From Longimicrobiales bacterium (lineage in GTDB: Bacteria > Gemmatimonadota > Gemmatimonadetes > Longimicrobiales > Gaopeijiaceae), in the NCBI GenBank assembly GCA_963664435.2, contig CAXXKM010000003.1, forward strand, positions 32,001 to 96,000: 64,000 nt of DNA. The letters run 5' to 3'. Positions 1,467-36,022 of this stretch are shown piece by piece. Under the pieces are notes generated by a model that searched no databases, was not told where the DNA came from, and worked only from the letters and a program-made list of their open reading frames with translations. The position numbers and the translations under genes are program-made. Each line of letters begins with the position of its first letter. Within the stretch, counting starts at the first letter, position 1.

Positions 1467-2941
1467 GCGCGCACCTCCCCGCCATTCAGATCGTCGTGCC
1501 CCTGCTGGCGGCCGCCCTTTGCGTGCTGGTCCCCTGGAAGCGGGTTTCGTGGGGGATCGCGTTCGCGGGATCGGTGACGGCCTTTTTCGCCGCCATCGGG
1601 CTGCTGTCCCGCGTTCTGGACGGCGAGGAAATCCGTTACGCGCTCGGGGGATGGGCGGCGCCCTGGGGGATCGAGTACCGGATCGACGCCGTCAACGCCC
1701 TGGTGCTGCTCATCGTTGCCGGCATCGGCGTAGTCGTGACGCCGTTCGCGCTCAAGAGCGTGGAGCGCGAACTGGACGGGCGCCGCATCCCCCTCTTCTA
1801 CGGGGCCTGGATGCTGTGTCTGTGCGGGCTCCTGGGCATCGCCATCACGGGCGACGCCTTCAACATCTTCGTCTTCCTGGAGATTTCCTCGCTCTCGGCC
1901 TACGCCCTGATCGCGATGGGTTCGGACCGGCGCGCGCTGGTTTCGGCCTTCCGCTACCTGATCATGGGCAGCGTGGGAGCGAGCTTTATCGTGATCGGGA
2001 TCGGGCTGCTCTACGTGGAGACCGGCACCCTGAACCTGGCCGACCTGGCCGAGCGCCTGCCGGCGCTGCACGGCGAGCGGACGGTCCTGGTGGCGTTCGC
2101 CTTCCTGACGGTCGGCACGAGCCTCAAGCTGGCGCTCTTCCCGCTCCACCTCTGGCTTCCCAACGCCTACACCTTCGCGCCCTCGGCGGTCACGGCCTTC
2201 CTCGCCGCCACCGCCACCAAGGTCGCCGTATACGTGCTGCTGCGCTTCTTCTTCACTGTCTTCGGCACGGCGTATTCGTTCGAGCAGCTCAGGCTCGGGG
2301 TGTGGCTGCTGCCTCTTGCGCTGGTCGCGATCTTCACCATGTCGCTGGTTGCGATCTTCCAGGGCAATGTGAAACGCATGCTGGCCTACTCGAGCGTCGC
2401 CCAGATCGGCTACATCATCCTGGGCGTCAGCTTCGCCTCCGTGACCGGGCTGACGGCAGCCACCCTCCACCTCTTCAACCACGCGCTCATGAAGGGGGCG
2501 CTCTTCCTCGCGCTCGGTTGCGTGATGTATCGCGTGGGCTCCGTCCACATCGACGCCCTGCGCGGCCTCGGACGGCGCATGCCCTGGACCATGGCCGCCT
2601 TCACCGCCGGCGGCCTCAGCCTCATCGGGGTGCCGCTCACGGTGGGTTTCGTGAGCAAGTGGTTCCTGGTGCTGGGGGCGCTCGAACAGGGGATGTGGCC
2701 GGTCGCGGCGCTGGTGCTGGTCACCTCAACCATGGCCGTGGTCTACATCTGGCGGGTGGTGGAGGCCATTTACTTCGGTGAGCCGTCCCCGCGGGCCGAG
2801 TCAGCCACCGAGGCGCCGCTCTCGCTGCTGGTGCCCACCTGGGCGCTCATCGTCGCCAACCTCTACTTCGGCATCGACGCCACCCTGACCACTTCGGTCG
2901 CCGGGCAGGCGGCGCGCACCCTGCTGGGAGGCGCTCCATGA
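1463..2941 (+). CDS. mrpD: Na+/H+ antiporter subunit D (proton-conducting membrane transporter)
   Basis: 'TGDAFNIFVFLEI', 'KLALFPLHLWLPNAY', 'KRMLAYSS' motifs. Confidence 0.9.
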   Translation: MSAHLPAIQIVVPLLAAALCVLVPWKRVSWGIAFAGSVTAFFAAIGLLSRVLDGEEIRYALGGWAAPWGIEYRIDAVNALVLLIVAGIGVVVTPFALKSVERELDGRRIPLFYGAWMLCLCGLLGIAITGDAFNIFVFLEISSLSAYALIAMGSDRRALVSAFRYLIMGSVGASFIVIGIGLLYVETGTLNLADLAERLPALHGERTVLVAFAFLTVGTSLKLALFPLHLWLPNAYTFAPSAVTAFLAATATKVAVYVLLRFFFTVFGTAYSFEQLRLGVWLLPLALVAIFTMSLVAIFQGNVKRMLAYSSVAQIGYIILGVSFASVTGLTAATLHLFNHALMKGALFLALGCVMYRVGSVHIDALRGLGRRMPWTMAAFTAGGLSLIGVPLTVGFVSKWFLVLGALEQGMWPVAALVLVTSTMAVVYIWRVVEAIYFGEPSPRAESATEAPLSLLVPTWALIVANLYFGIDATLTTSVAGQAARTLLGGAP

Positions 2942-4413
2942 ACGCCGGCGAGCTTGCGCTCCTCGCCCTCATCATCCCCGCGGTCGGCGCGGGGCTGGTG
3001 GGCCTGCTGCGTGCGCAGCCCAACCTGCGCGAGGCCGCTTCGCTGATTACCGGCGGCGTGCTGCTGGGCGTGGTGATGCGGATCCACCGGGCGGTGGCCG
3101 CGGGCGAGATCCCGCGCCTCGTGCTGGCGGAGCCCCTCCCCGGCATCCCGCTGGTACTCGAGGTGGAACCGCTGGGGATGATCTTCGCCCTGGTGGCGGG
3201 AAGCCTCTGGATCGTGACCACGCTCTACGCCATCGGCTACATGCGCGGGCATCACGAGAAGAACCAGACCCGCTTCTACATCTTCTTCGCCCTGGCCATC
3301 TCCTGCACCATGGGCGTCGCCTTCGCCGGCAACCTGTTCACCCTCTTCGTCTTCTACGAGGCGCTCACGCTCTCCACCTTTCCGCTGGTCACGCACGCGG
3401 GAACCGACGCGGCGAAGAGAGCCGGACGCGTCTACCTGGGCATCCTGCTCAGCACCTCGATCGCCTTCCAGTTGTTCGCCATCATCTGGACTTACCTGCT
3501 GACCGGGACCATCGATTTCGAGATGGGCGGGATCCTAGAAGGCAGGGCTGGGGAGGGCGTGGTGGCGGTGCTGCTGGCGCTCTACGTCTTCGGCATCGGC
3601 AAGGCGGCGGTGATGCCCTTCCACCGCTGGCTGCCCGCGGCCATGGTCGCTCCGACGCCGGTAAGCGCGCTCCTGCACGCGGTGGCGGTGGTGAAGGCGG
3701 GGGTGTTCAGCATCCTCAAGATCACCATCTACGTCTTCGGCATCGACTTTCTCACGCAGCTCGGCGCGAGCGTCTGGCTGATGTGGGTGGCCGCCGCGAC
3801 CATCATCCTGGCATCGCTGGTCGCCTTCCGGAAGGACAATCTGAAAGCGCGGCTGGCCTACTCGACCATCAGCCAGCTCTCCTACGTGGTGCTGGGCGCG
3901 ATGCTGGCCAACACCATGGGGATCATCGGCGGAGGCATGCACATCGTCATGCACGCCTTCGGCAAGATCACCCTGTTCTTCTGCGCGGGCGCGATCATGG
4001 TCGCTGCGCACAAGACCGAGATCAGCGACATGAGGGGCCTGGGGCGCAGCATGCCCGTCACCTTCGCCGCCTTCTTCGTCGGGACGCTGTCGATCATCGG
4101 ATTGCCGCCCGCGGGGGGCACCTGGAGCAAGTGGTTCCTGGGTCTCGGGGCGCTGGACGCGGGCCAGGTCGGACTGGTCGCCGTGCTGATGGTAAGCTCG
4201 CTGCTATCCATCGGGTATCTGATGATCGTCCCGGTGCGGGCGTTCTTCAGCCCGGCCTCCAACCCGCACGGCCACGGGCACGCGAACGGAGGGATACACG
4301 AGGCGCCGCTGCCTTCGCTGATCGCGATCGTGATCACCAGCCTGTGCTGCTTCGCGCTCTTCGTGTACCCGGATCCCTTCTTCCAGCTGATCTCGATGGT
4401 GGCGGGGCCATGA
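2938..4413 (+). CDS. Na+/H+ antiporter subunit D/A-family paralogue
   Basis: 'PFHRWLPAAMVAPTPVSALLHA' and 'LKARLAYSTISQL' motifs of the NuoL/MrpA/D family. Confidence 0.88.
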   Translation: MNAGELALLALIIPAVGAGLVGLLRAQPNLREAASLITGGVLLGVVMRIHRAVAAGEIPRLVLAEPLPGIPLVLEVEPLGMIFALVAGSLWIVTTLYAIGYMRGHHEKNQTRFYIFFALAISCTMGVAFAGNLFTLFVFYEALTLSTFPLVTHAGTDAAKRAGRVYLGILLSTSIAFQLFAIIWTYLLTGTIDFEMGGILEGRAGEGVVAVLLALYVFGIGKAAVMPFHRWLPAAMVAPTPVSALLHAVAVVKAGVFSILKITIYVFGIDFLTQLGASVWLMWVAAATIILASLVAFRKDNLKARLAYSTISQLSYVVLGAMLANTMGIIGGGMHIVMHAFGKITLFFCAGAIMVAAHKTEISDMRGLGRSMPVTFAAFFVGTLSIIGLPPAGGTWSKWFLGLGALDAGQVGLVAVLMVSSLLSIGYLMIVPVRAFFSPASNPHGHGHANGGIHEAPLPSLIAIVITSLCCFALFVYPDPFFQLISMVAGP

Positions 4414-9071: not shown

Positions 9072-9145
9072 CGGGGCGTGGCGCAGCCCGGTAGCGCGCC
9101 TGCTTTGGGAGCAGGAGGTCGCCGGTTCGAATCCGGCCGCCCCGA
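9072..9145 (+). tRNA. tRNA-Pro(TGG), CCA not encoded; integration site of the island
   Basis: Cloverleaf with anticodon arm CCTGC-TTTGGGA-GCAGG and T-arm GGTTCGAATCC. Confidence 0.97.
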
Positions 9146-9147
9146 TT
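9102..9147 (+). repeat. attL: 46-bp direct repeat (tRNA-Pro 3' half)
   Basis: GCTTTGGGAGCAGGAGGTCGCCGGTTCGAATCCGGCCGCCCCGATT is identical to 48510-48555. Confidence 0.97.
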
Positions 9148-16295: not shown

Positions 16296-17147
16296 ATGTA
16301 TGTCATGAAGAGAACCATCGCCACGACTCACCGTGACCGGCACGGCGATGTGATCACGCGTGAAGCGCTTGAGGATATGGCCGAGCAAGCGTCTCGGCGC
16401 TGCATCCCCCTGATGTACGAGCATGACCCACGCTTTCCTCCGGTGGGCCGCACGCTGTCGGCTGAGGTGGTTCGGTTGCCAGACGGCCACCATGCTCTCG
16501 TTGCGACATCGGAGATGTTCGAGCCGGGCGACGTAGCGCCTCCCTTTGAGGGAGGTCCATCGATTGAGCTGGGCAAGCTGGCAGATGGGATCAATCTCGT
16601 AGTGGACCGCAGCCATCTCGACGAATCCAACCGAGAGGTTCTTGCCGAACTCGCGGCGCAGGGCGTGACGATTGAACGCTACGCCAAGAAGTCGCTTGAA
16701 CCAATCAGCGTGCTCGTGCTGGCGTTCGCAATCATGGCGCACGGCTTCTTCGGAAAGATGGGGGCCGACCTTTGGGACGCGGTTCGTGATGCTGATTGGT
16801 CTGCCGTCTGGACTCGCGTCCGCAAGCTCTTGAGCCATCGGCGCCGAACAGGAAGCGAGTTCCTGTTCGTGCTTGAACTGCGCCTCCGCGACGATCCGCA
16901 CCCACTGGCGTTGAGCGTCATTCTTGACAGCCCTACCGATGAGGAGCTGGATGACTTCATGGTCAGCGGCGAGCCATTGATTCGTGAAATGATCCCGCAT
17001 CTTCTGGCACTCGGCGACGAGGTTACCAAGGCGGTGGTGCGATACGAACGTGGAGAGCTGCGACCCGGATACGTGATCCGTAGCGACGGGTACCCAGGCC
17101 AACTCGAAAGGATCAATCCGGAAGAGTTAGCCAGCGGGCTATCATAA
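16296..17147 (+). CDS. Hypothetical protein; N-terminus resembles a phage prohead-protease fold, central hydrophobic helix
   Basis: Clear RBS (AGGGAG) before ATG; 'DRHGDVITREAL...PLMYEHD..PPVGR'; the domain call is by eye only. Confidence 0.7.
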   Translation: MYVMKRTIATTHRDRHGDVITREALEDMAEQASRRCIPLMYEHDPRFPPVGRTLSAEVVRLPDGHHALVATSEMFEPGDVAPPFEGGPSIELGKLADGINLVVDRSHLDESNREVLAELAAQGVTIERYAKKSLEPISVLVLAFAIMAHGFFGKMGADLWDAVRDADWSAVWTRVRKLLSHRRRTGSEFLFVLELRLRDDPHPLALSVILDSPTDEELDDFMVSGEPLIREMIPHLLALGDEVTKAVVRYERGELRPGYVIRSDGYPGQLERINPEELASGLS

Positions 17148-17448: not shown

Positions 17449-17667
17449 TTACAGCCTGCTGTATTGGTATGCTCCCTTGATGTTCTCGTTGAGATATTCT
17501 CCCTTCGACTCGGCCTGTCGGAACTCATCAAATCGCCACTCCTCCACGTCGTAGTAAACGTATGTGGCTCCAGACTTCAAGAAGCGCACATGAACCTGCT
17601 GAGTATCGACATCGTATCCAATGGCTTCAATGTTGGATGAATCCACATAGTGCATATCGATCATCAT
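17449..17667 (-). CDS. KTSC domain protein
   Basis: 'VDSSNIEAIGYD...VRF...YVYYDV....F..AESKGEYLNENIKG.Y.Y' KTSC pattern; ATGA overlap with herA stop. Confidence 0.92.
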   Translation of the reverse strand: MMIDMHYVDSSNIEAIGYDVDTQQVHVRFLKSGATYVYYDVEEWRFDEFRQAESKGEYLNENIKGAYQYSRL

Positions 17668-19529
17668 TCCTGCTCCTGTTTCTGTTTAGCGGGGTCGTGA
17701 TTTCCATTCGGCACGCTCTGCGCCCTCCATCCTGCGACCGCATCCGAATATAGCGAGGACTCAGGCCGTACGCCCTTTTGCCACACGTCGGGAAGTGCCG
17801 GATCATCTCCGATCGGCTTGTGTCGCGCGCGGCGAATCCGCACTCGTGACGGGATTGCCATCACCGCACCAACAAAGATGCCTTCACCAGTTCTCAACGA
17901 CGGAAGCTGTTCTGCAAGACCACCCAACTCATCGGGCAGCGCACCGGCCACGATGCCCTTGTCAGCACGATTGGTCGTACGCAGTGCTACCATTGACCCG
18001 CACTGACTCAGCGCAGAACGTGCTATTTCGGACGGCCGCTGCGTGACCAACAAGAGACCGGTGCCGTATTTCCTCCCCTCCTTAGCGATCATCGATACGG
18101 TCCGATGGGCTGGCGAGTCTTTCCCTCGTGGTACAAACAAGTGAGCTTCGTCTAGGACGATTAGCAACGGCTGCTCCCGACCACCGATCGGGAGACTCTG
18201 CGCCCAGAACAGCACGTCGTACACGATTCGAAGAACGGTACCGACAACTGTCGGTAACACTTCTGAAGGCAATCCGGATACGTCGAGTACCGTGATCGGC
18301 CGATCATGGCCGACCCAGCCTGCAACCAACGCATCGATATCGGAGTCCACTTTTCCATCGAGATGGGGCGAGAATCCATCCCCTGGCGCAAAGAGAAAAG
18401 AATACCGACCATCCCGTAACCGGCTTCGCATTAGATCGAGGTGGCGGTCGATGTTGCGCTTTTTTTGATTCATGTACGGCGGTTTGTTGTACGGGGTAAC
18501 CGCTGGGTATACATCGGGTGTCAGCGTCTCCGCGTCGCCAGTCGTCTCTGGTGGGTATGCGTTCTCATCGGATTGGTTGCTCGACTTGGGGAAAGTCATC
18601 CGCTCGAATCTATCAAGCTCATACCATAGCCTCTTGATGCTGAAGGGTATCGGCGAGTCGGCAGTCAGAGCCTCCACGGGAGGTGGTTCATGCAAGTAGC
18701 GTGACGCTTGGGTTTTCAGAGCAAGCACCGCGTCTCTGACAGAAACCTCGTGGTTCGGCTGGAGATCTCCGAGGGTCAACATCTGAAGTTCGCGAAAAGG
18801 CAGGGCCCAAAACGGGACCCAAAGCGGCTGTTCATCCGTGCCTGCCTCAGCCCCCACGCGAAACACTTTCGCGTGGTTCTCCAGTGCAGCGCCGTATTCT
18901 CCGTGAGGATCAATAACGAGGGCTCGCGCTCTCGGCAGCCTGCTGTCCGCTAGAGCTTCGAGCAGGACAGAAACGAGATTAGACTTGCCAGCACCTGTGG
19001 AACCCACTACAGCGCAGTGGCGACTCACAAGGCCGGCGATGTCGATACCCGCCGAGATGTTAGCCGTACCAGCGATGGTACCGACCGAGATTCCACCGTG
19101 TTCCATACCGGTAGAGCCATAGATGAGTCTGGCATCGCTGTTGGTTACAACGTGAACTTCATCACCGACAGTGGGGTATTGACTCACACCTCTTTCGAAA
19201 TCACCACCGATGGCTTCGCCGAACAACATTACCGTCATCCATCGGTAGCCCATGAGTATTGGGTCAATCGCCTCGTCAGCGATGCGTTCGTTGGAAAAAG
19301 CATTGGCAATGCTGGCTGGCATCGCGTCGGCACCCGTTTGTGTGCACACAGCATAGATGTCGGTGTACCCGATCGGTAAGCGAACGAACCCGCCGACTTG
19401 ACCCACGCGATACGACTCTCCACCGATGAGCAAAAGGGTGGATGGCATGTCGTCACGCAAACGGACACGAACGGTCGCGCCCGTGACAGACGCGACACGC
19501 CCGATGTATGTAGGCTCAGTGCGTGACAT
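17664..19529 (-). CDS. herA: HerA/FtsK-family ATPase (HAS barrel + DUF87)
   Basis: Walker A 'GSTGAGKS', Walker B 'IVLDEAH', 'EGRKYG', 'TQRPSE'. Confidence 0.92.
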   Translation of the reverse strand: MSRTEPTYIGRVASVTGATVRVRLRDDMPSTLLLIGGESYRVGQVGGFVRLPIGYTDIYAVCTQTGADAMPASIANAFSNERIADEAIDPILMGYRWMTVMLFGEAIGGDFERGVSQYPTVGDEVHVVTNSDARLIYGSTGMEHGGISVGTIAGTANISAGIDIAGLVSRHCAVVGSTGAGKSNLVSVLLEALADSRLPRARALVIDPHGEYGAALENHAKVFRVGAEAGTDEQPLWVPFWALPFRELQMLTLGDLQPNHEVSVRDAVLALKTQASRYLHEPPPVEALTADSPIPFSIKRLWYELDRFERMTFPKSSNQSDENAYPPETTGDAETLTPDVYPAVTPYNKPPYMNQKKRNIDRHLDLMRSRLRDGRYSFLFAPGDGFSPHLDGKVDSDIDALVAGWVGHDRPITVLDVSGLPSEVLPTVVGTVLRIVYDVLFWAQSLPIGGREQPLLIVLDEAHLFVPRGKDSPAHRTVSMIAKEGRKYGTGLLLVTQRPSEIARSALSQCGSMVALRTTNRADKGIVAGALPDELGGLAEQLPSLRTGEGIFVGAVMAIPSRVRIRRARHKPIGDDPALPDVWQKGVRPESSLYSDAVAGWRAQSVPNGNHDPAKQKQEQE

Positions 19530-19530
19530 C

Positions 19531-20709
19531 TCAATCTCTCTCGGTCATGGATTCAATGAACTGACAGAAAACGGCAAAATCGCCGATGCTTACCTCGACG
19601 TCGTCTTGCTCATCGCCATTTCCACGGGACCGGATGACATTGCCGAGTACCGCGGGGACGTTGCTTGCGTACCAAGGGAGGCGGCGTCCACTGATCACGG
19701 CGGTCTTCGGTCCGATAACGAGAATGTTGCGATGCTGTTTTGCTCGCTTGGTCAGATCGCTATCCGGCGGTTCTTCCCTAAACTGGAGTGCGTAGATGTG
19801 AGTTCGCGGGTGGTTCTCCAATGCCCGGAACAGCAGGTCATTGATATGTTCATCGCCGAAACTGAAACCGGAGATGATCAACACTGCATCCTGCTGTCCC
19901 AAGAACCAAGCCAGTCGGTCGCGGAATGCGACATATGGTTGTTGTCGCGACTGTTCGTATTTCTGAAGAGAGGGGTAAATCATCTCCCCGTCCGACTCAG
20001 GGTTGCCGCGCACGATGTCGGACCGACCACCGCGATCTTCCCGCCGCCACGTTACCGATCCATGCATTTTCCACAATCTGGACCAAGTCGCACCTGGCTG
20101 CGACTCCGGGAGTTGAAGGCTCTCAGGATAGAAAAAGGGCCGGTAACTGCCTACGAATCCATCATGCAATGGAACACGCTCAACCTCCATGCCGTGCTCG
20201 ATCAGCACATCATAGTTGACGGTAAACACTTCTACCGGCCTGTGGTGCGATGAACGAGAGATCCATCTCGCAAACTGGCGATGCGGAAAGTGCTCAGGGA
20301 CGGAAGCCATCTCTGGGTTTACAGTCGTGGCAATAGTTGCCCGCGTCGTGGCATCTAGCTCCTTCAGTTGTGCTCGGTCTAGTCCCGAGAGCTCATCGGA
20401 ATCACGCATTGCAGCAATCATCGTGCGAAGACGCGACAGAATGTCCTCGACATTGGCCTTTCGCGTCTCCGTATCACAGCTGCTGGCGATGGAGTCCCAC
20501 GCCGCAAGGAACTCGTCACCCAAAGCCTGGGCCGCGTCTCTGCACTGGCCAGTCAGCTCTTCGACGGCTGGAATGAGCGGATCGTTATCGATGCGGATGC
20601 TGCATGATGTGCCCGCGCCAAAGAAGAAGGCGATGGGCTTGTCGTGGAGTGCCAAGTGGTTGCGGAGTTCGTCTAGCGTCTTGACGGGATCGTGTGTTCG
20701 ATTGGACAT
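19531..20709 (-). CDS. SIR2-like NADase of a SIR2-HerA defence system
   Basis: 'FFFGAGTS', 'FTVNYD', 'WKMHGS', 'GFSFGDEHIN'; 1 bp from herA start. Confidence 0.92.
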   Translation of the reverse strand: MSNRTHDPVKTLDELRNHLALHDKPIAFFFGAGTSCSIRIDNDPLIPAVEELTGQCRDAAQALGDEFLAAWDSIASSCDTETRKANVEDILSRLRTMIAAMRDSDELSGLDRAQLKELDATTRATIATTVNPEMASVPEHFPHRQFARWISRSSHHRPVEVFTVNYDVLIEHGMEVERVPLHDGFVGSYRPFFYPESLQLPESQPGATWSRLWKMHGSVTWRREDRGGRSDIVRGNPESDGEMIYPSLQKYEQSRQQPYVAFRDRLAWFLGQQDAVLIISGFSFGDEHINDLLFRALENHPRTHIYALQFREEPPDSDLTKRAKQHRNILVIGPKTAVISGRRLPWYASNVPAVLGNVIRSRGNGDEQDDVEVSIGDFAVFCQFIESMTERD

Positions 20710-20796: not shown

Positions 20797-23595
20797 TCAG
20801 CCATTGGCATCGAGTGCGGATGTGGAGCGCGAAAAGCCGGAGCGTCGCGTTACGATGCGAACCCGACCCCCTAGATCCAGATCCCGGAGGGCTTGAGTCA
20901 GTTCAGCCTCAAGGCTCCGAACCCTCTCGGGGCTGACGGTCGCCGACAGTTCAATGCCGACCCTGAGGTTGTCCAAGGGCCGAAGCTTCGGGAGAATCCT
21001 AATCCCGAGCCGGTTCCAGACTTCCGCGGGTATCGTTCCGAGAACCTGAAGGACCGCCCTCGACTCCTCAGTGGGGGTTGGCGTTGGATCCGACTCGGGC
21101 TCTGCTCCGGTGTCGCCGGGCTGTGGCTCGCGAGGCGGCGGGTCCGGCTCGGGCGGGGTTGTCAGGGCCTCGGACTGCCTCTTGGTGAGGAGAAACACAT
21201 CCGGATCGAACGTGATCTCCTCCTGCCTGATCGGCTCCGCATACCAGAATCGGCCGTAGCCTCCATCGGGCCGGGCACCGGACGCCAAACCGAACTCGCC
21301 CGCGGCCACGAGCGCGGCGATCTGCCGCCGAAGGACCTTCTCTGGATCGCTCAGCCGCGTCAGCGAACCATCGAGGAAGCTCTGGCGCAGGCTTCTGAGC
21401 GGCCACGCCCCGGAATCCGTGAACGCGGGCGGCCAATGGCGGTCGATGTAACCAGCTCCGACCGACTCGTTGAGAAGTGCCTCGGCCTTCATGGCGCTCG
21501 TAATGCGACCGCAAAGGGTCTGGCTTCCGCTGGAATGGCCCGCGCCCAAGTCGATGACCCTGAGGCCCGTCTCCTCGCTGTTGTCGGACAGCACGGCGAA
21601 ACGGTAGCTCGCCCAAACCTCGTCCCTGGCGGCCTCTTCCGAGTCTCTGACCATGGTGGCCACGCCCGCGCGATCCGCGCGGTCGAAGTCCGCGCCCAGC
21701 ACACCCTGCGCCACCTCGGTGGCGACTCGCTGCCACGCTAGCCAAAGCTCCACCTTGTCGGTCAGTTCCCGCCCAGGCTTTCTGACGCACCAAACGAGCG
21801 ATGCGGGATAAAGCCGATCCGAGGTGCCGCGCCTTCTGGTCCACTCGGCGATTCGTCCGGTCGCCGCCCCGGCGTCCGTCCAATCCGTCTCCGGGTCGCA
21901 CAGCACGAGCGAAAGGTTCGGCGTGTCCGGAATGTCCATCGCGGTGCCGGGGAAGGGGACGAGGGGCAACATGGCTCCTCGCGCGAATTCCGCCTCGACG
22001 AGCTTACGGACGGCCGGTCTGATCTCCGTCTCCTCGTCCAGCGAAGCGCGGCGGTCGCTGACCACCTTCCTCAGGGTTGCTTGGTGATGGATGCGGTATC
22101 CGTCCGTCCCCACGCTGCGGACGAAGAACCCGGCCGCCTCCAAGGCGGCTGCCGCGTTGTCCACGGTCGTGGTGTCGATCTCTGGTTCTCCGAGCGCGAA
22201 CCGCAATTCGGGAAGGTGGGCAACTTTGTCCACCTGACCGCCGGACGACTCGAAGAGGATGGCCGTGCCTGTGCGTCGATGGATGTCGCGCAGCGCACCC
22301 CTGGCGTCCGCGTCCAGTGCTCGCGCGTGTGCCTGTTGTCCAGCCAAGTCGGCCTCGATTGCCGCGTCGAGGCGCGACTCCCCCAACTGGCCCAGCACTA
22401 CCGCGCGGAACTCGGGCACATGCATCGGAGCGGACCCCAGCGTGATCAGCGGCTCGGTGCGCGCCTTTCGAAAGTGTTCGCGCGCGGCCCACGATACCCA
22501 CTGGGCGAGCATCGCTAGCGCACCCCGGGTCTGCTGAAACTGCGGCAGCGCCCGCCATTTCCGCTGAAACACAGAGAGTGTCGCCGGGTGGAACGGGTAG
22601 CAGGCCTCGAACCGGGTGCGGAGGAACTCCCGGGCCTTCGCCTCGGTCGTCGCGGTGTCCACGGCCAGCCATTCGCGCGGGAGACGCGCGGTGCGCTCGA
22701 AACACCAGTTGGCGTAAGTGTTGGCCACCCTCCTGCGGATCCGAACCCCGCCGAGATCCTCGAAGAGCCGCCGCCGCACGACCTCGCTGATCTCCGCCTC
22801 GTCGTTCGCGATCAGGTCGCGCGCAACCCGGCCGACGACCTTGTCGATCTTGGCCTGCCATTGCTGATCCCAGTCCGTCATTTCGACTTGGCTGCGAGGC
22901 AGGCTGATGATCGCGGCCGCGCGGGTGGTCCCAGTGACGGCCACCGTGAGGTTCTGGATGAATGCGTGAAAGCTGTCGGCCATGGCGCGGTGGCGGTTGA
23001 CGAAGTTGAGAACCTCGTCGAACAAAAGCAGAACAGGTGCCCCTGCGGCGGCGAACACGTTGCCCAGAGTCGCAGTCCCGGGGGGCGTGGTCCGCGCAGC
23101 CGCGCCGAGCGCCGCGACGCCGGGCTCGCCCGCCACTTGGCGAGCCAAGTCGATCCATGGCGTCTCCCGGCCTTCAGCCGGATCCCACGCGTTGCCGACG
23201 AACACGCCGACCCGGGCCGAAGGCACGGCCCGGAGCCCCTCCATTTCGAGCAGGCTCTCCACGCCCGGGAACCCGGAGGCCGCCTCGCCGCTGCTGGCCA
23301 AGTGATAGAGTGAAGTCAGGGTGTGGGTCTTCCCGCCGCCGAACTGGGTGATGAGCGTGAGGACCGGCGCGGTGTTCTCCGTCTTGCCCGAGAGCCGGCG
23401 TAGCGCTATGCCGACGTGCTCTGTAAGCGCCCGCGTGAAGCAGGTGCGCGCGAAGAACTGCGCCGGGTCGCTGTAGTCGGGCGGCGCGGTTCCGGCGACC
23501 ACCTGTTCGAGCGCGATGGCGAACTCGTCCGGACTGAAGGAGCGGCCTTCGCGCACTTCTCGGCGCAATGTTGCGACTCTGTACCAAGGATCCAT
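20797..23595 (-). CDS. DUF499 AAA+ ATPase
   Basis: 'FFARTCFT', Walker A 'TQFGGGKTH', Walker B 'LLLFDE', 'CYPFHP', 'FQQTRGAL'. Confidence 0.9.
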   Translation of the reverse strand: MDPWYRVATLRREVREGRSFSPDEFAIALEQVVAGTAPPDYSDPAQFFARTCFTRALTEHVGIALRRLSGKTENTAPVLTLITQFGGGKTHTLTSLYHLASSGEAASGFPGVESLLEMEGLRAVPSARVGVFVGNAWDPAEGRETPWIDLARQVAGEPGVAALGAAARTTPPGTATLGNVFAAAGAPVLLLFDEVLNFVNRHRAMADSFHAFIQNLTVAVTGTTRAAAIISLPRSQVEMTDWDQQWQAKIDKVVGRVARDLIANDEAEISEVVRRRLFEDLGGVRIRRRVANTYANWCFERTARLPREWLAVDTATTEAKAREFLRTRFEACYPFHPATLSVFQRKWRALPQFQQTRGALAMLAQWVSWAAREHFRKARTEPLITLGSAPMHVPEFRAVVLGQLGESRLDAAIEADLAGQQAHARALDADARGALRDIHRRTGTAILFESSGGQVDKVAHLPELRFALGEPEIDTTTVDNAAAALEAAGFFVRSVGTDGYRIHHQATLRKVVSDRRASLDEETEIRPAVRKLVEAEFARGAMLPLVPFPGTAMDIPDTPNLSLVLCDPETDWTDAGAATGRIAEWTRRRGTSDRLYPASLVWCVRKPGRELTDKVELWLAWQRVATEVAQGVLGADFDRADRAGVATMVRDSEEAARDEVWASYRFAVLSDNSEETGLRVIDLGAGHSSGSQTLCGRITSAMKAEALLNESVGAGYIDRHWPPAFTDSGAWPLRSLRQSFLDGSLTRLSDPEKVLRRQIAALVAAGEFGLASGARPDGGYGRFWYAEPIRQEEITFDPDVFLLTKRQSEALTTPPEPDPPPREPQPGDTGAEPESDPTPTPTEESRAVLQVLGTIPAEVWNRLGIRILPKLRPLDNLRVGIELSATVSPERVRSLEAELTQALRDLDLGGRVRIVTRRSGFSRSTSALDANG

Positions 23596-23739
23596 TCTCG
23601 ACTGCCCTCAAGGCTCGCGCATGTCTGTGCTACCAATCACGGGCGGATGGTTTCAGCACTGCGGTTCGCTGGGGATGGGGTTCGGGCGGCGGGGCCTCCG
23701 GCGACCTGCAAGTAAGCTCGACGACTCGTCTCCGGGATG

Positions 23740-26505
23740 TCAACGCGGGACGGCCAGGATCATCGCGTCCAGAAGGCGCTTCTCGCGGCTCCAGCGGGGA
23801 TAGAGGGCGGAGAGCGCGTTGGCCAGCCGCAAGAAGGCGGGTCCCCGATCCTGTTCGGCCGCGATCAACTTCCTGAGCGCGTTCGCGTGACCGGTTGCCT
23901 GAAGGAGCATGCCCGCATGGACACGATCGAGCGTGGTCGCGCCGGACCGCTCCAACGCGTCGTCAGAATCAAGGATCGATCTGGCCCCGCGACGACGGCG
24001 TGGACTCGGTGTCGCCGTGGTTTCCCAATCGGGGAAGAGAGCCGGTTGCAGGTCCGCCTGCGGATCCCTTTCGATCCAGTCGGCCGCCGCGTCCGCGCCG
24101 TCCCGGCCGAACAGCTCATCGGCTCGCTCCGACACGGGTAGGAGGCGCACGACACCCTTTTCTTGGCCAATCACCCGACCGGTCCATCGGTCGAGTCCGA
24201 TGCCCATAGGCTGCGAGAACCGTCGCACCACGTCGTAAGGAAGTTTGAGCCCTTGCGCGGCCGCCTTGGCCGCGGCCCGCTGGGCTTTGGCGTCCTTGGC
24301 CGAATCTTCCTGATCGCCTTCAGTGCTCTGGTACGTCCAGAGAAACAGGGCGGTGAGGCGGGCATCCTCTTCGAGCGTGCCCGCGTCGGCCGTGCCGAGC
24401 ACCTGTTCGAGCGCCGCCCGTCCCACGACCTGCCAGACCTTCTCCAGAAAATGGGGCAGGCCGACCTCATTCCCCTCAGCGGTCTCGACGGCGCGATAGC
24501 GGCTGAACACCTCAAGCGCTGGCCCGACGCAAGCGAAGACCAGGTCGGCACCGCGTATGCCCTCGTCCTGGAGCCGCTTCATCCATGCGGCCACGCGGAC
24601 CGGCAATTCTCGGACGACATCGTACCAGTCACCAACCGGGGCGTCATCTGGGCGTGGGCGGCAAATCAAATGCACGCTGGTTGCCAGTGAAGCTGACTCT
24701 CGCGCTCTGAGGCGCGCTTTCCTTTCGGTCGCGATCGGCCAAGATCCGGTGATTGTCCACCCGCCACGAATCATGCCGGAAAGCAGCGCCTCCCATCCTT
24801 CTGTTGTCTTGTGTGCGAAGACCACGGAGCCGACGCCGTCTTCTCGCAGGACGCGGCGGCCTTCTGCGAAGGCCTTCGCCATGGTCTCCTCGAACCAGTT
24901 ACCATCCTTCCGACATCCGTCGGCATCTCGCCTGGTTTCGTCCTGTACTGCTTCGCCGACCTTCGGGGAGAGAGGGTTTTCGGGATCGAACGGATCCAGG
25001 AGGAGGGGGTGACCTGGCTGCGTCCGCTTGAGCCAGACCAGGAAGAAATCCGACAGATCCGAATAGGGGATTGCATCGTAGTACGGTGGATCCGTAAACC
25101 AAAGAGCGCACGTCTCATCCGGGAGGGAATGGCTCGCCGCGTCAACGTTCTCGGCTTGCCCTTGCCCCCTGACGGCTGCCAATGAGAGTGACGCTTCCGC
25201 AGCTTTGTCGGTCACGTCTGCAAGGCCGCCGGCATAGGGTACCAAAGGGTACATCTCGGGGTAGTCCCAAGACATGGGTAGGGTCTGCATTCCGAATGCC
25301 CCCGCCACGGTTTCGCTCCCCCGGTGCCATTTTGCGAGGACGTTGCTATGGCGCAGTAGCTTGCCCATCGCCAGGGCCAGCAGTCTGGCGACGACTTCGT
25401 GTTCCGACTCCACCGCAGACATCAAGAGAGTGACCAGCACCGCCTTCTGACGCGCCGTAAACAGGTCGCCCCATTGGAGCATGCCGTAGCGCTGGACGCT
25501 GAACGCTCGCCCAGCGCCTGACCCGCCTCCGGCGGGGGTAGGCTCGTCCGGCAGCGGACGGAGTCCCTTTCGGCCGCCGACCTCCCACTCGTCCAGTATC
25601 CGGGCGACCGCCGTCTGTGCCCTGCGCACGGGCGCATAGTCCGCGTCCGTGGGCAGTCGGTAGTGCCGCCATCCCCGCTGGCCCGGACGAAACGTGACGA
25701 CCGCCATCATGCGTGCTCCGCCGATCCGGTTGCCTTCCTCGTCGAAGACTGTGTCGGCGCCGCCCCGCTGGGCTGCCAACTGCGACCGCAGCCGCTCCTT
25801 CGGCATCACCGCGCGACAGCACGGGCACGTTGCCTTCGCGTAGGACACCGTGCCGGGATGAACGTCACCTTTCGTCTCCGGCTCAAAGATCTCGAAGGCG
25901 ATCCGCGGCGAAGTGCCAGCGGCCCGTTCGACCGCGAGCCGTAGCGCACGCTTGCGCTTCGGCTTGCTGCACAGCCAGAAGGATTGCGCCAGCGGAATCT
26001 CGGCACCGCAGTTCGGCGACTCACAGCGCACCGTACGCGCCCACAGGTAGGCTAGCGGCGTCGCGCCGTTGGGCTCGGGCGGGTAAAGGTCGACGAGTCC
26101 CTGCCGAGCCTTCTGCTCGACCGATTTCGCGGCCCGTCGCAAGTCCTCGGCCAGCCCGGGGCCGTAGCGCGGAATATCCTCCAGCATGGCCTTGAGGATC
26201 AAGCACGCCACCGGGTTGAGATCGCTGGCGAAAGCCCCGCATCCGAGCCGAAGGGCCTCGAGCGGAATCGATCCACCACCCGCGAACGGGTCCACCACCA
26301 GCGGTGCTTCGTCTCCGTGTGCAGCCTTTACGAGCGCCTTGGCCGTCTCGATCCACGATTGCTTCGCCGAGTGATCCCAGCTTGCAAAATCGGCGATGAA
26401 CTTGAGGAGGATCCGGCGAAGCCCCTCGTCCGTCCCGAGCTCTGCGGTCCACCCAGAGGGGCGCCCGCCCATGCCGAGCAGAATCCGCCGTGCCTCCTTC
26501 CCGAA
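23740..26505 (-). pseudogene. DUF1156 adenine DNA methylase, 3' portion (interrupted by IS1595 element)
   Basis: 'DPFAGGGSIPLEA' and 'TDPPYYD' motifs; joins in frame with 42620-42834 when the IS and one TSD copy are removed (...CPPAFGK|EARRIL...). Confidence 0.93.
26498..26505 (+). repeat. Target-site duplication, left copy (TTCCCGAA)
   Basis: Identical 8-mer at 42620-42627 immediately outside the right TIR. Confidence 0.95.
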
Positions 26506-26528
26506 GGGAATTATACGCCTGCCTTGAC
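26506..26528 (+). repeat. Left terminal inverted repeat GGGAATTATACGCCTGCCTTGAC
   Basis: Exact reverse complement at 42597-42619. Confidence 0.97.
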
Positions 26529-26552
26529 AGCAACCCCGGATCATGTTATTAT
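26524..26552 (+). promoter_or_regulatory. Putative sigma70 promoter of the transposase overlapping the left TIR
   Basis: TTGACA (26524-26529) -17 bp- TATTAT (26547-26552); RBS GAGGGG before ATG 26589. Confidence 0.65.
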
Positions 26553-26588
26553 CAATGTACGCTAAGAGCAACGCAATGAGGGGGTTAC

Positions 26589-27475
26589 ATGGCGGCGAAG
26601 GGACCGGGCAAGCACCACCGCAAGGGCATCACGATGCCGCAGGTCGCGACAATGTTCGCGACCGAGGAAAAGGCAATCCGCTGGTTCGAGTCGTGGGTCT
26701 GGCCGGACGGCGAGATGGCCTGTCTCCGCTGCGGTTCCGTGAACTGCTATCGGGTAAAGTCGGGCAAGCCGATGCCGTACCGCTGTCGGGACTGTCGGTC
26801 GTATTTCTCGCTCAAGACCGGGACGCTCATGGAACAGTCGAAGCTTCCGCTTCGGCTCTGGGGCTGGGCGATCTATCTGGAACTGACGAGCCTCAAGGGC
26901 GTTTCGTCTATGAAGCTGCACCGCGATCTGGGCGTTCGGCAGGCCACGGCGTGGTTCATGTTGCACCGCATCCGGGGCGCGTTCGCGGACATGGCGTTGA
27001 CGTTCGACGGCCCGGTCGAGGTGGACGAAGCGTATTTCGGCGGCAAGCGGAAGAACATGAGCAACACGCGCCGGAAGGAACTGGAGGGCACGGGCCGCGG
27101 GCCGGTCGGCAAGCAGGCGGTGGTCGGCATCAAGGATCGGGCGACGAAGCGGGTTGCCGCGCGAGTGATCGACCGGACGGACGGCGAGACGCTACGGGGT
27201 TTCGTGGACGCTCACGCGAGCGACGGCGCGAAGCTGTACACGGACGATGCCACGGCCTACCGGGGCACCGACCGGGAGCACGAGACGGTCAAGCACTCGG
27301 CAGCCGAGTACGTCCGGTATCTGGAAGGCGAGACGGTCCACACCAACGGCGTAGAGAGCTTCTGGGCCGTGTTGAAGCGAGCGCACAAGGGTGTCTACCA
27401 CCGCCTGTCGCCGAAGCACCTGCAAGCCTACGTGGACATGTTCGCAGCACGCCAGAACGTGCGCGAGATGGACAC
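26589..27475 (+). pseudogene. IS1595-family (ISXO2-like) DDE transposase, 5' portion
   Basis: Zn ribbon 'CLRCGS...CRDC', 'VEVDEAYFGG', 'YTDD', 'HTNGVESFW'; ends abruptly after 'REMDT'. Confidence 0.93.
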
Positions 27476-27950
27476 ACGGAGCACCTGAGGTCCGGATCAC
27501 GGCAGTAGATCTTCTAACTACATACAGGACTGCACGATCTGCGTTTCCTGTCGTTGTACTGGACCTTGCTGGACCGTGCCGCCAAAGCGGGAAAAACGTA
27601 CTTGAATGGCGGGACTCCCGCGCCCGCCCCGCCTCTGACCAAGGTCCCGGAAGCCGACGTTGCCGACCGTCTCCCTCACCGGCAATCGGATCGACCTCGA
27701 CGGCCAAGACGGCCAGCCCGCGATCGGCGTGGATCGCTATCATTCGGCGGTGGGCGGAGCACCGGACGCGGACACCGATGCGCCGACCCTCCGATGGGAT
27801 GCATCATCGCGACGTCGCCCGGCCCGGCTCCCTGAACGGAGAGGCTTGTGGAAGCGAACCGGGCGGTTTCGCTAGATTCCCGGGCCGCCGAGGTTCGGCG
27901 GCCCGAGTGACGACACGCGGCCCGACGCCTTGCCTGCCCGGAGAAACCCG

Positions 27951-30730: not shown

Positions 30731-33700
30731 CTAGCGAATGCCCGAGGACGAGGAGATTGTCCCGCCTGTCACCGCGCGCCTCACCGGACTGGTTTCATCG
30801 TCTTGCGGCTCGGTGCCCGGCTTGACGCGCAGGACGCCCTCGACCGGAAGGCGGAGCGCGGACGGATCGTCGCCGGGGCGCGGGCGGATGACCGTCCATT
30901 CCGCTCGCGTAGAGTGCAGCAGGCCATCCCATTGCGGTTCGACCGTCAGGCTGCCGCTCGACTGCCTGCTGGCCCGGATGCTGCCCTGGGTGACCCGCCG
31001 GTTCACGATTTCGCACCCCGTGCTGGTCAGACAGCTGTAGCGGATGTTGCCCTCGACGATGTACGAACTGGTGCCGGTGAACTCCACGGTCGCTACGCCG
31101 CTGGAGTACCGGAAGGAAATGCCGCCGCCCGAGGTGTCCGGAGTCCAGAATCCGGTCGGGAGGGTCTCGATCGTCTGCCCCGTCGTGTACGTCGTGTCGC
31201 TGCCGCCACCGTTGGTCCGTATCGTGACCCTTATCGCCGACGAGCAGTTGTTGCTCGTGTCCGATTCGCCGGAAACGGCGTCGACACATTCCCCGACATA
31301 GACGGTGCCCAACGGAGCACCGGCGTCGATCTCGATCAAGGCCTCGCCGCTCACTTCCTCGGACGGGTTCAGGGAAGGCACCGCAGCGGCGCCGACGTCG
31401 GTGTCGTTGGTGGAAATGGTCGCGTCGGCCGAAATCAGGGTCCGTACGAGGGTGGCCGCCGCCGCCTCGTCGCCTTGGTTGCGCACCGTCAGTTCGTACG
31501 AAAAGCTGCTTCCGCGCGACACCGTGACGCTCGATCTGGAGAGACTCACCACCAGATCGGGGCCGCCGGACCCGCCGACGGTCACGCGGACGCCCCGCGA
31601 GCAGTTGTTGGCCGTGTCGGATTCGCCGGACACCGCATCGATGCAGATGCCGAAGTAGAAGGAGCCTGCGGTCAGGTTCGCCACGGTCCCGGTAATCGTC
31701 CGGCTCTGCCCAGCGGCGAGGCCGGCGAAGGCCGTTCGACCGATCTCGTCGTCCGTCGTCGAGATTGTCGAGTTGCCTGACTGGTAGAGGCGGATCGTTG
31801 TGGCCGGCGCCGGCGCGTCGCCGGTGTTCCGGATCGTGAAATCGGCCTGAACCGACCCGCCGACCGACCCCGTCACCGAGGTCGGCGTGACATTGGTGAA
31901 CTCCAGATCCGGCGCGCCGGAACCCGTGACCGTCACCCTGACACCGGTCGAGCAGTTGTTGCCCGTGTCGGATTCGCCGGAAACGGCGTCGGCGCAAATC
32001 CCGAAGTAGAAGGTGCCGGAGGCTTGGCTCGACAGGTTGACCGTTCCGGTGATTGTCCGGCTCTGCCCCGCCGGAAGCCCAGAGGTTCGATCGCTCGCGA
32101 TCTCCGTGTCACTGGTCGATATGGATGGGTCGGACGATTCGTAAAGGCGGATCGTCGTGGCGGGCGCGGTCGCGTCGCCCGCGTTCCGAAGCGTGAATGC
32201 GGCCTGCACCGACCCGCCCGGCGACCCCGTCACCGATGTCGGGGTGACGCCGGTGAACTCCAGATCCGGCGCGCCCGCCGACTCCACGTCGACCCGGATG
32301 TCCTGCGCCGCGCTGAGGCCCTCGGGGTCCTGGGCTGTAACCGTGATCGTCGCGGTCCCGGGACTCGCAGCTGTGATCGTCACGGTCGAGTCCGACACCG
32401 AGACACCGGCCACCGTCCCGTTGGACGACGAGGCCGAGTAGGTCAACGCGTCCCCGTCAGGATCGCTGAAGTACCGCCCGGCGTTCACAGTGGCACGGCG
32501 GCCCGCTTCGATGGACTGGTCCGGGACGGTGCCCTCCGGGCGTGGCGGCCGGTTCGGCTGGGGCACCGTGACGCTCACCTGCTGGGTCGCCGTCGCCGGC
32601 TCGTCGTCACTCGCCGTGATCGTGACCGTGGCCGCTCCCGGTCCTTCCGCAATGATGGTGACCACGCTGCCCGCCACGCTCGTGCGCGCAACCGACGGGA
32701 CCGATGAGGCGGCCGTGTAGCTCAAGTCGTCGCCGTCAGGATCGCTGAACGAAGCGGACACGTCGAGGGTGGCCGACTGGCCCACCTCGATCATTTGCGG
32801 CTGAAGCGTTCCCACTGCCACGGGCGGCCGGTTGGACACCGTCACGCTCACCTGTTGAATCGCGCTTGCCGGCTCGTCGTCGCTCGCCGTGATCGTGACC
32901 GTGGCCGTTCCCTTTCCTTCCGCGGTGATCGTGACCACGCTGCCCGCCACGCTCGTGCGCGCAACCGACGGTGCCGATGAGGCGGCCGTGTAGCTCAGGT
33001 CGTCGCCGTCCGGGTCGCTGAACGAAGCGACCACGTCGAGAGTGACGGACTGGCCCACCTCGATCGTTTGCGGCTGAAGCGTTCCCACCGCAACAGGCGG
33101 CCGGTTGGGAACCGCGAACGGGAAGGACTGCGTGGCCGAGAGGCCCCCGGGATCGCGTGCGGTCACCGTCACGGTGGCACTGCCCTTCGCCAAAGCGGTG
33201 ACCGTGACCACCGAACCCGCAACGCTCACGCCCGCCACCTCGGGATCCGAAGGGCTCGCCGTGTAGGTGAGCGCTTCCCCGTCCGGATCCGTGAAGTACT
33301 CGGCCATGTCGACCGTCGCGATGGCGCCGACCCGCTCGGTAACGCCGGGCGGCGTGCCCCTCGGCTGAGGCGCCCGGTTGGGAACCGTGACCGTGAAGCT
33401 CTGCTGGCCCTGGAGCCCTCCGGGGTCACGGGCCGTCAGCGTGACCGAGGCGCTGCCGGGCGCAACCCCGGTTACGGTGACCGAGGTGCCGGAGACCGAG
33501 GCGGAGGCGACCGAAGGGTTCGACGACGCGGCCGCATAGACCAGCATGTCGCCGTTCGGGTCGTTGAAGCAGGGGGTGACGTGGGACGTCTCGCCGACAT
33601 GCACCGTCACCTCCGGGATCGGGCCGCAGGGATCCGGACCCAAGGGGTTCTCGCACGCCACCACCCAGAGTGCCAGCAGGATTGCCGTCCGAAGCGCGAA

Positions 33701-33774
33701 CCGGGCCGGACGCCTTCTAAGTACAGCCGCTACATATGTTTCGGGGGGGGGGGGGTAGCTGAAGCGAGGGTCAT
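30731..33774 (-). CDS. Surface lipoprotein with five Ig-like repeats and three CARDB-like domains; plausible ATG (33774) is out of frame at a C13 tract
   Basis: Lipobox 'VVAC', repeats 'F.DPDGD.L.Y.A.SS', CARDB 'PDL...GESDT.NNCS'; start uncertain (ORF track extends to GTG 33922). Confidence 0.8.
32561..33106 (-). repeat. Two near-identical tandem 273-bp (91-aa) Ig-domain repeats
   Basis: 'NRPPVAVGTLQPQ.IEVGQS.TLDV.ASFSDPDGDDLSYTAASS' starts at 33106 and 32833. Confidence 0.9.
33743..33755. repeat. G13/C13 homopolymer in the 5' end of the Ig-repeat gene
   Basis: TC-GGGGGGGGGGGGG-TAG seen directly. Confidence 0.95.
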
Positions 33775-33928
33775 GTTGTGGTCCAGTGGTGGCAAACGAC
33801 GCTTGGTGGTCCGGGGGTGGCGCAACGCCCCCAAACCGGTACCCACTACAATCTACAAGCACTCGGTGGGCTTCGCATCTTGTCGCCCGCGAACGACCCC
33901 GGCCCGGATCGGATCGGCGCACCGTCCA

Positions 33929-36022
33929 TCAGGGGCGAATGATCCCCACCACCCGGCCATGCCGGTCGCGGACCTCGATGGGGCCGCGGATCACGTCTTC
34001 GCCGAGAGGGACGGCGCGGCTTCGATGCGCACGCAACGCGGCCGCGCCCGGAAGACGGTAGGCGTCGGCGAGGTCCGTTCGCGCGGCGTACCCCATATCC
34101 GAGAGCGACGCGATCGTTACCGCGCTGAGGGGCATCACGGGCTCGGCGCTCGGATTCATCAGTTCGTTGCCGAATACGTTCTTGCGCCAATGCACGTCGT
34201 CCCTGCCGCGGCGGATCCCCTTGTTCTCCACCGGGACCTTGGAACCGGCGGTGTAGGAGGTCCCGCCCGCTTCGTCGAACGCCCGGATCGCAAGCGCTCC
34301 CGCGAAATGCGTGTCCACCTCCCGCTCCACAGGCAGCGATGGATTGCGCAGGAGCCCGAACCCGTCCCACAACGGGCCGATGCCGAGCACATGGCCCATC
34401 TCGTGGAGAATCACGGATTCCAGAATCCCTTCCGCCTCCATCCAGGCCATGTCCGCCGCGTCAAACTCCATCACGCCGAACCATGGAAGCATCGATCCCG
34501 CGCGAGTCCCGCACGGTCCGGCTCGACCGATCGTCCCGCCGACGCCGTCTATCTCCTCGACTGACGCCACGATCATCAGGTCATCGACGACACTCACGTC
34601 TTGCTCGTGCGTCCTGGCCGGGGATCGGCACGTGACAACGCCTTCCGGCACCGGCATGTCCGGCAACTCCGTGTCTTCCAGTATCTCCATCCACCGCGCC
34701 GCCATTCTCTGGAACGCCTTCTCTTGCGCGGCCGTCAGCACCGTGGCGAAGCGGATTTCGATCTGGAAGGACCTAGGGTCCCCGGGGCCGCCTGCCACCG
34801 TCGCTTGGAAGGACAGCGCGGCCGATAAGTCGCCCGAGTCTGAAGCCAGGACGGTGACCGTGACCCGCCCCTCGCGCACTCCCCAAAGCAGCAGGGTCTC
34901 TCCACGCACCTCCACCGACGCGACCGCAGAGTCCGAAGACGATGCCACATAGGTCAACGTGTCCCCGTCCGGATCCGAGAAGCGGCCCGCAAGATCCAGC
35001 CGGATCGTATCGCCCGCACCCAAATCGACATCCGGCAGGGCACCGGTCGTAATCGGTGCCCGGTTCCGAGCTTCCGCGCCGAACATGTGAGCCGCCGTCA
35101 GGCCGTCGGGGTCGCGCGCGGTCACCGTGATCGCCGCCCGCCCCGCCCCGAAAGCGGTCAGGCGCACGGACTCGCCCAAGACGGTCGCCGCAACCGCGCC
35201 GGGACTCGACGACGACGAAGCGTAGCGCAGCGGCTCTCCGTCTGGATCGGCGAAAAACGGCGCAAGGTCGATCACGCGCGTCTCTCCGCGCCGCATGACT
35301 TGACCCTCGATCACGCCCAGCGCGACCGGTTCCCGGTTGGGTACCTCGAAACCGAACACCTGAACAGCCGCCAGGCCCCCGGGATCCGTCGCCGTGACGG
35401 CGACGGAGGCGGTGCCCCTCGCCCGCGCCGCCAACGTCGCCCGATTGCCCGAGACGGCCACGCCCGCGACTTCGGCGTCCGAGACCGTCACCCGGAAGCG
35501 AAGGTGCTCGCCGTCCGGCTCCTCGAACCAGGACGCAAGATCGACGACTACCTCCGCGCCCGCCTCGACCCTTTGCTCCGGGACCGTGGCCACTGCCCGC
35601 GGCGCCCGGTTCGGCACGACGACCTCGAAACTCTGCTGATCTCCAAGCCCCGCCGGATCGGTGGCCGTCAGCATGACCGTCGCGGTGCCCGGGGCGATGG
35701 CGCGCACCGTCACCTCCGCCCCCGCAACCGAGACCGTGGCCACCGAGGGGTTCGATGACCCGACCGCGTAACTCAACGCATCGCCGTTCACGTCATTGAA
35801 GCAGGCGGTGACGCCGGACGTGTCCCCCACGTGGACCGTCAACTGGGGCAGCGCACCGCAAGCCGCGGGCGCCAGTGGGCTATCGCACGCGGCGACCAGT
35901 ACCCCGAGGGCGAGGACGACCCATGCTTGGGAGCGCATGCTGCCTCGAAATCTCCTCCGGGAAGGCGAGCGAGGGAAGGACAATGGCAAGGGAAGGACAA
36001 TGGCAGGCTCCGTCCGCGCCAT
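33929..36022 (-). CDS. Surface lipoprotein with four Ig-like repeats and a C-terminal leishmanolysin-like (M8-type) Zn metalloprotease
   Basis: Lipobox 'VAAC', Ig repeats, 'ILHEMGHVLGIG', distal 'HW' and 'ELM' Met-turn; start 36022 or 35938. Confidence 0.82.
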   Translation of the reverse strand: MARTEPAIVLPLPLSFPRSPSRRRFRGSMRSQAWVVLALGVLVAACDSPLAPAACGALPQLTVHVGDTSGVTACFNDVNGDALSYAVGSSNPSVATVSVAGAEVTVRAIAPGTATVMLTATDPAGLGDQQSFEVVVPNRAPRAVATVPEQRVEAGAEVVVDLASWFEEPDGEHLRFRVTVSDAEVAGVAVSGNRATLAARARGTASVAVTATDPGGLAAVQVFGFEVPNREPVALGVIEGQVMRRGETRVIDLAPFFADPDGEPLRYASSSSSPGAVAATVLGESVRLTAFGAGRAAITVTARDPDGLTAAHMFGAEARNRAPITTGALPDVDLGAGDTIRLDLAGRFSDPDGDTLTYVASSSDSAVASVEVRGETLLLWGVREGRVTVTVLASDSGDLSAALSFQATVAGGPGDPRSFQIEIRFATVLTAAQEKAFQRMAARWMEILEDTELPDMPVPEGVVTCRSPARTHEQDVSVVDDLMIVASVEEIDGVGGTIGRAGPCGTRAGSMLPWFGVMEFDAADMAWMEAEGILESVILHEMGHVLGIGPLWDGFGLLRNPSLPVEREVDTHFAGALAIRAFDEAGGTSYTAGSKVPVENKGIRRGRDDVHWRKNVFGNELMNPSAEPVMPLSAVTIASLSDMGYAARTDLADAYRLPGAAALRAHRSRAVPLGEDVIRGPIEVRDRHGRVVGIIRP

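Follow-up and report, generated by a model that had tools for sequence, protein, structure and literature searches.

SIR2–HerA systems of E. coli (Nezha, PDB entries 8J4U and 8SU9, and the types I-III of PMC13434337) place sir2 upstream of herA and, according to the accessible part of that paper, act through depletion of nicotinamide adenine dinucleotide (NAD+) and abortive infection. The SIR2–HerA system of Paenibacillus sp. 453MF (8W9L, 8WIV, 8WJ3, 8WLD and 8WOF) guards E. coli against T7, and the activating phage cue is unknown to its authors (PMC11472057, accessible text). Here we describe a locus that carries sir2, herA and a small third gene for a KTSC domain in a Longimicrobiales bacterium, within a stretch of 64,000 nucleotides referred to as the window (GenBank assembly GCA_963664435.2, contig CAXXKM010000003.1, positions 32,001 to 96,000). 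For all three window proteins the Paenibacillus system is the best PDB match. Gene order, the putative SIR2 catalytic triad and the Walker motifs are alike and both systems contain the KTSC domain, but in Paenibacillus this domain is fused into a 696-aa HerA, whereas in the window it is a separate, coupled gene, which is the commoner state (60/66 loci, see below). By its sequence, the locus is an intact Paenibacillus-453MF-type SIR2–HerA system encoded as three genes. E. coli 8J4U is distant from it (HerA 100 bits, SIR2 53 bits), and the accessible text on the E. coli types I-III (PMC13434337) mentions no KTSC.

The KTSC domain is already present, unnamed, in the validated Paenibacillus system. 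The best PDB match of the window KTSC protein consists of residues 631-696 of the 696-aa Paenibacillus HerA (phmmer to 8WIV, E 2e-9), and its predicted model, with a predicted local distance difference test score of 96, superposes on chains of 8WLD, 8WOF, 8WIV and 8WJ3 (Foldseek, template modelling (TM) score 0.80-0.89 over 72 columns). Because the superposition is on modelled coordinates, the domain must have been built in these cryo-electron microscopy (cryo-EM) maps. The authors named aa 576-696 the ‘C-terminal arm domain’, and the term ‘KTSC’ occurs 0 times in the accessible text and supplement of PMC11472057. Hence the three-component variant put forward in an earlier, sequence-only reading of this DNA holds in that KTSC is a real and constant third part; the part itself is not new in kind, since it lies within the Paenibacillus 453MF HerA. 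The fold is shared with stand-alone KTSC proteins (PF13619; many of them phage proteins), with TM scores of 0.93 for 4RGI and 0.90 for 7X8C (0.89-0.93 overall); HerA-coupled KTSCs differ from these in being mostly acidic and tied to one operon.

The other two proteins follow the same template. The window SIR2 finds 8W9L as its best PDB match (E 3e-54), and its putative catalytic residues N165, D167 and H216 correspond to N163/D165/H212 of the Paenibacillus SIR2, in the numbering given in the accessible text of PMC11472057; N, D and H are retained in 54/54 SIR2 proteins of the HerA clade described below. The window HerA matches 8WIV with 454 bits across residues 6-606, other solved HerA structures reaching at most 168 bits, and it terminates ~15 residues past the arm helices, without KTSC. 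Its motifs comprise Walker A K182, Walker B D460-E461 and R486, and of the N-terminal barrel residues for SIR2 binding (F39/Y60/I100/Q110 in Paenibacillus, L34/Y55/I107/Q117 in the window) three out of four are identical. The NCBIfam Nezha equivalogs NF042942/3/4 missed the locus (SIR2 77.5 against a cut-off of 500; HerA 207.6 against 850 and 152 against 800). NAD+ depletion and phage protection have been demonstrated in relatives (PMC11472057 and PMC11514289, and also a preprint by Garb, each as far as accessible), and the conserved catalytic and interface residues suggest that the window system would act likewise.

Table 1. Features of the window, with the three-gene cassette first (positions count from the first letter of the window)
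Feature	Positions	Strand	Description
sir2	19531-20709	(-)	392 aa; predicted SIR2-family NAD+-hydrolysing (NADase) effector; Pfam SIR2_2 E 7e-16; PADLOC PDLC04093 440 bits
herA	17664-19529	(-)	621 aa; HerA/FtsK-type ATPase; Pfam DUF87/HerA E 2e-29; PADLOC PDLC04105 492 bits
KTSC-domain gene	17449-17667	(-)	72 aa; coupled to herA; Pfam PF13619 E 1e-20
herA stop/KTSC start overlap (ATGA) with Shine-Dalgarno-like AGGAG in herA tail	17664-17677	(-)	direct sequence reading
hmaC-like (DUF499) and hmaB-like (DUF1156)	20797-27488	(-)	upstream of the cassette, same strand; Pfam, PADLOC
Island at tRNA-Pro	9102-48555		~39 kb; exact 46-bp direct repeat (9102-9147 / 48510-48555) of the tRNA-Pro 3' end
tRNA-Pro	9072-9145

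The organisation of the cassette is as the sequence-only reading described it. Base 19530 is the sole separator of sir2, which lies upstream on the same strand, from herA, and direct reading confirms that the herA stop and the KTSC ATG share bases. The AGGAG lies 5 nt upstream of this ATG, and a further in-frame ATG follows immediately after it. The three genes do form an AT-rich block, with GC contents of 0.56 (sir2), 0.57 (herA) and 0.47 (KTSC) against 0.65 for the whole window; their GC content at third codon positions is 0.60-0.63, compared with 0.75-0.82 in hmaB, hmaC and the integrase. The KTSC protein scores 73 bits with PF13619 (cut-off 25) and is the single KTSC match in the whole genome. 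Contigs of 4/4 runs (three studies; one run may be the source) span the herA/KTSC junction with zero letter differences, so that the herA stop is genuine and an assembly artefact at this position is ruled out. A promoter and terminator scan of the locus gave nothing exceeding shuffled sequence.

How constant the third gene is was assessed on loci gathered by HerA similarity, not via KTSC. They came from 7 GTDB loci, 5 plasmid regions chosen among 643 matches, samples of 301 and 401 genomes (for the latter 30 of 60 matches were taken), the best 80 of 187 metagenome matches and 31 viral loci. From 164 loci we obtained 126 near-full HerA proteins and, after removal of 6 duplicates, 120 for the tree; the 38 loci off the tree comprise 6 without a scored HerA or similar, the remainder being fragments or weak matches. 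In one HerA clade (FastTree support 0.997) KTSC directly follows herA in all 66 assessable loci, 60 of them with a separate gene (the window included) and 6 with a fused one, while outside this clade it was found in 0/43. Another 11 loci, 4 in the clade and 7 outside, were lost to contig ends. The KTSC profile was derived from the clade, and the outside loci were therefore rechecked with Pfam: 40 of the 43 loci had downstream frames, 97 in all and none with a Pfam KTSC match, and the remaining 3 had no open frame of at least 50 aa; two divergent KTSCs of the clade (L111 and L079) match the Pfam model below its cut-off. Thus the neighbourhood and tree comparison suggested by the sequence-only reading places KTSC in a single HerA clade, no close SIR2–HerA homologue lacking it was met among the assessable clade loci, and chance adjacency of KTSC and herA is ruled out. 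As related loci are not independent, the counts stand for retention through a deep clade and not for 66 separate events.

The clade ranges from bacteria, including Gammaproteobacteria, to haloarchaea with a constant KTSC position. SIR2 is present in all 61 clade loci whose upstream sequence extends for 300 bp or more, and a SIR2-like gene lies upstream in 19 of the 43 outside loci. KTSC was also seen on 8 C-terminal HerA fragments off the tree. Among annotated loci beyond the tree, those of the clade (E. coli PA45B, Paraburkholderia and Pseudoalteromonas) all have KTSC and one outside locus is without it; in the plasmid regions the RefSeq name of the third gene is ‘KTSC domain-containing protein’. 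Two clade members with a fused KTSC, L058 and L085, can be aligned over their whole length with 8WIV, which is itself off the tree. A search for longer KTSC-containing proteins, itself a weak one, found none among 8 candidates; the fusions came from the loci instead. The converse association fails: HerA precedes KTSC in only 4 of 30 KTSC loci (from 38 matches in the 301-genome sample), one of the 4 lying in a genome that had been used as a sample centre.

Several relatives show further rearrangements. In two close ones, L006 (2117-5000) and L007 (6008 onward), herA is interrupted by insertion-sequence-like open reading frames (ORFs), and in L006 KTSC still follows the 3' part of the interrupted gene. 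L002 and L004 (~2200-3800) carry a ~500-aa ORF that overlaps or abuts sir2 on its upstream side. In the haloarchaeon Natrinema (L012:5377-6354) ADP-ribosylglycohydrolase ORFs come after KTSC, which is notable beside an NADase. A phage collection yielded 3 distant HerA matches (25-31% identity) and none close. H44, a short E. coli match, was rejected as a member of the system, being a pseudogene fragment without the operon.

The tie between KTSC and HerA is also seen in spacing and divergence. In 55 of the 60 split loci the KTSC start lies at most 20 nt from the herA stop, with an overlap in 20 (starts were picked approximately). Across 54 three-protein loci, Spearman correlations of pairwise identities are 0.69 for HerA–KTSC, 0.50 for SIR2–KTSC and 0.74 for HerA–SIR2, and 0/500 permutations were as high. 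Given HerA, the SIR2–KTSC correlation falls to -0.03, and the HerA–KTSC correlation persists at 0.55. KTSC divergence hence appears to follow HerA rather than SIR2, a pattern of co-inheritance that would be compatible with contact. Complex prediction of KTSC with HerA (52-row alignment) gave a score of 0.00 and a mark of 0.32, to which we attach no weight either way.

As to the direction of change, a short linker precedes the KTSC part of the fused forms, which still begins with its start methionine. An IQ-TREE tree (LG+G4, short search) was built from 37 rows, 3 of them outgroup rows and 34 drawn from the 66 of the clade, with the long branches L111 and L120 excluded. It has only split forms on the deepest clade branches and in the lineage of the window, and no fewer than 4 changes of state are required. 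The approximately unbiased test rejects a single clade of fused proteins, and with it a common origin of their fusion, whether all 6 are included (p 2e-67) or only the 5 that remain without L134 (p 2e-6); in lone metagenome fusions such as L134 a sequence error is possible. Several fusions are preferred because the alternative under the outgroup root, a single fusion and then ~nine fissions, is less economical. With moderate confidence, therefore, the separate KTSC gene is probably the ancestral state, from which KTSC was fused to HerA several times.

On balance we regard a three-gene abortive-infection system with KTSC as HerA accessory and input module as the best overall explanation. SIR2 rings would dock on the HerA hexamer, and the SIR2–HerA complex would deplete NAD+ in infection; both steps have been shown for the fused relative and would apply here in view of the conserved catalytic and interface residues. 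KTSC would be an obligate, clade-specific accessory, produced at ~1:1 by translational coupling. In the models of the fused relative KTSC lies past the C-terminal arm, on the flank of the hexamer, and the free protein would presumably dock at the corresponding place. Its most probable task would be at the input: it would capture phage nucleic acid that is single-stranded or has an exposed end, or else a phage protein, and hand this cue or substrate to the ATPase/helicase, which in turn would license the NADase. That KTSC is a genuine component of the system we consider very likely and its physical association with HerA likely, while the input role, as sensor or loader, is put forward tentatively. 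In favour of such a role, the fused complex preferentially unwinds 3'-overhang and forked DNA and preferentially cleaves single-stranded DNA (ssDNA), according to the accessible text of PMC11472057.

Several observations weigh against this explanation. The SIR2–HerA systems of other clades operate without KTSC (E. coli Nezha and the types I-III in the accessible part of PMC13434337; 0/43 outside loci), and in the part of PMC11472057 available ssDNA left the NADase activity of the fused Paenibacillus complex unchanged. The window KTSC is acidic (net charge -6, isoelectric point 4.6); the core charge of clade KTSCs has a median of -3 and is negative in 60/66, against a median of +2 for free-standing KTSCs with 19/26 at or above 0, a comparison to be taken as a hint only as about half of the free-standing set belongs to one related subfamily. 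It weakens simple electrostatic ssDNA binding, and the acidic trend holds among high-GC loci too; the three free KTSCs nearest the clade have charges of 0, -2 and -2. KTSC is a putative single-stranded nucleic-acid binding domain. Passing labels call it ‘DNA-binding’ in PMC9503650 and ‘RNA-binding’ in PMC7824862, each in the accessible text. On the side of an input role, the core aromatics F29, Y36 and Y38 and the basic residues at positions 55, 64 and 71 (K55, K64, R71) are largely kept in the clade.

The same features might be read differently. KTSC could be a purely structural clamp, which extends the C-terminal arm and steadies the split-spiral HerA hexamer or its folding without any sensing. 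Its order in the cryo-EM models, its strict one-to-one inheritance and its acidic surface would fit such a role, and the authors of PMC11472057 credit hexamer stabilisation to the arm domain, whose residues 576-696 take in KTSC; however, the contacts named in the accessible text are helices 19-20 and the linker, with no beta-sheet domain among them, and clade KTSCs retain signature residues common to free-standing and phage KTSCs beyond the obvious needs of a clamp. We see the clamp as somewhat unlikely. An antitoxin-like brake, which keeps SIR2–HerA inactive as long as KTSC is neither displaced nor degraded by a phage product, would explain why this small, coupled and acidic protein is never lost from intact clade operons (66/66), the more so as SIR2–HerA complexes show NADase activity in vitro, in the accessible accounts, and would need restraint in cells. 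But in vitro the Paenibacillus complex already works as NADase, ATPase, helicase and nuclease with KTSC covalently tethered to it (PMC11472057, accessible text), and repeated fusion of KTSC sits poorly with release by degradation, which makes a brake quite unlikely.

KTSC as a hitch-hiker, or as an independently acting gene outside the SIR2–HerA mechanism, is very improbable: 26 of the 30 KTSC loci in the 301-genome sample have no adjoining HerA and the domain is frequent in phages (30 viral matches with E no higher than 0.001), yet the position after herA holds from Gammaproteobacteria to haloarchaea, fusion occurred several times, the domain is ordered in the structure, and the borders of the cassette include KTSC. 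A more specific idea is that the acidic KTSC is the receptor of the clade, a former nucleic-acid-binding domain that would serve as bait for a basic phage protein and so trip the HerA gate; the candidate targets we imagine are an ssDNA-binding protein or a phage KTSC partner. It is motivated by the E. coli type III system, unrelated to KTSC, which is triggered by phage ssDNA-binding proteins in the accessible account (PMC13434337). We think it unlikely; if it were true, swapping a 70-residue gene would shift which phages are sensed.

The coupling itself has a precedent. Iyer et al. 2022 (PMC9503650) state in one sentence, as ‘unpublished observations’, that a HerA-like ATPase and KTSC are coupled in cellular genomes; in the accessible text this sentence comes without data, distribution or mechanism, and it pairs KTSC and HerA with an endoDNase replacing the sirtuin, whereas the clade loci studied here carry SIR2 (61/61). 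It was the only mention of KTSC–HerA coupling found in the open literature, subscription journals and bioRxiv supplements being outside the coverage, and a term search found no ‘KTSC’ in the accessible text of PMC11514289 and one preprint. The constancy of KTSC has been overlooked in the literature as far as it was accessible, and the HerA–KTSC coupling had been mentioned that once. Although the core SIR2–HerA system was already known, which limits the surprise, a domain that is ordered, never absent from its clade and unnamed in the published models is the obvious candidate for the input. In ~9 in 10 of the sampled clade members KTSC is a separate 210-bp gene, and because of this definitions or clones limited to two genes would lack a subunit and might be scored inactive. 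PMC13434337 reports, in its accessible part, four clusters without robust defence. Its 8 cloning primers gave no match in 201 loci, including two E. coli loci of the KTSC type, a weak test as the primers are flank-specific.

The SIR2–HerA–KTSC cassette is one passenger of the genomic island at tRNA-Pro, which also contains an integrase, a relaxase, GmrSD (PADLOC HEC-06-like), BrnT/BrnA and an MmeI fragment (Pfam, PADLOC). A genome of the same family has in common with the window only positions 17501-20697 (72% over 3213 bp), and the homology to a congener stops at the KTSC stop codon. Since the first covers the cassette alone and the second ends with KTSC, the three genes move together. The neighbouring Hma-like system looks broken because an IS1595 transposase adjoins the 5' end of hmaB and no hmaA-like gene was identified beside hmaB. 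Apart from this locus, the cassette adjoins hmaC only in a single relative of 92% identity; a conserved Hma link, with a HEC-like module inside hmaABC, was rejected, as the same-family genome has the cassette without hma and the neighbours at the other loci are unrelated.

Convergent with the KTSC gene lies a 283-aa ORF (16296-17147, (+)), a candidate stand-alone defence gene. It has no match in Pfam, PADLOC, NCBIfam or PHROG, and its look-alikes in the ESM Atlas are unnamed clusters at 0.94. Its N-terminus may resemble a phage prohead-protease motif. Further upstream of the cassette, two large ORFs (30731-36340, (-)) contain internal repeats of 273 and ~355 bp and resemble repeat-domain surface proteins.

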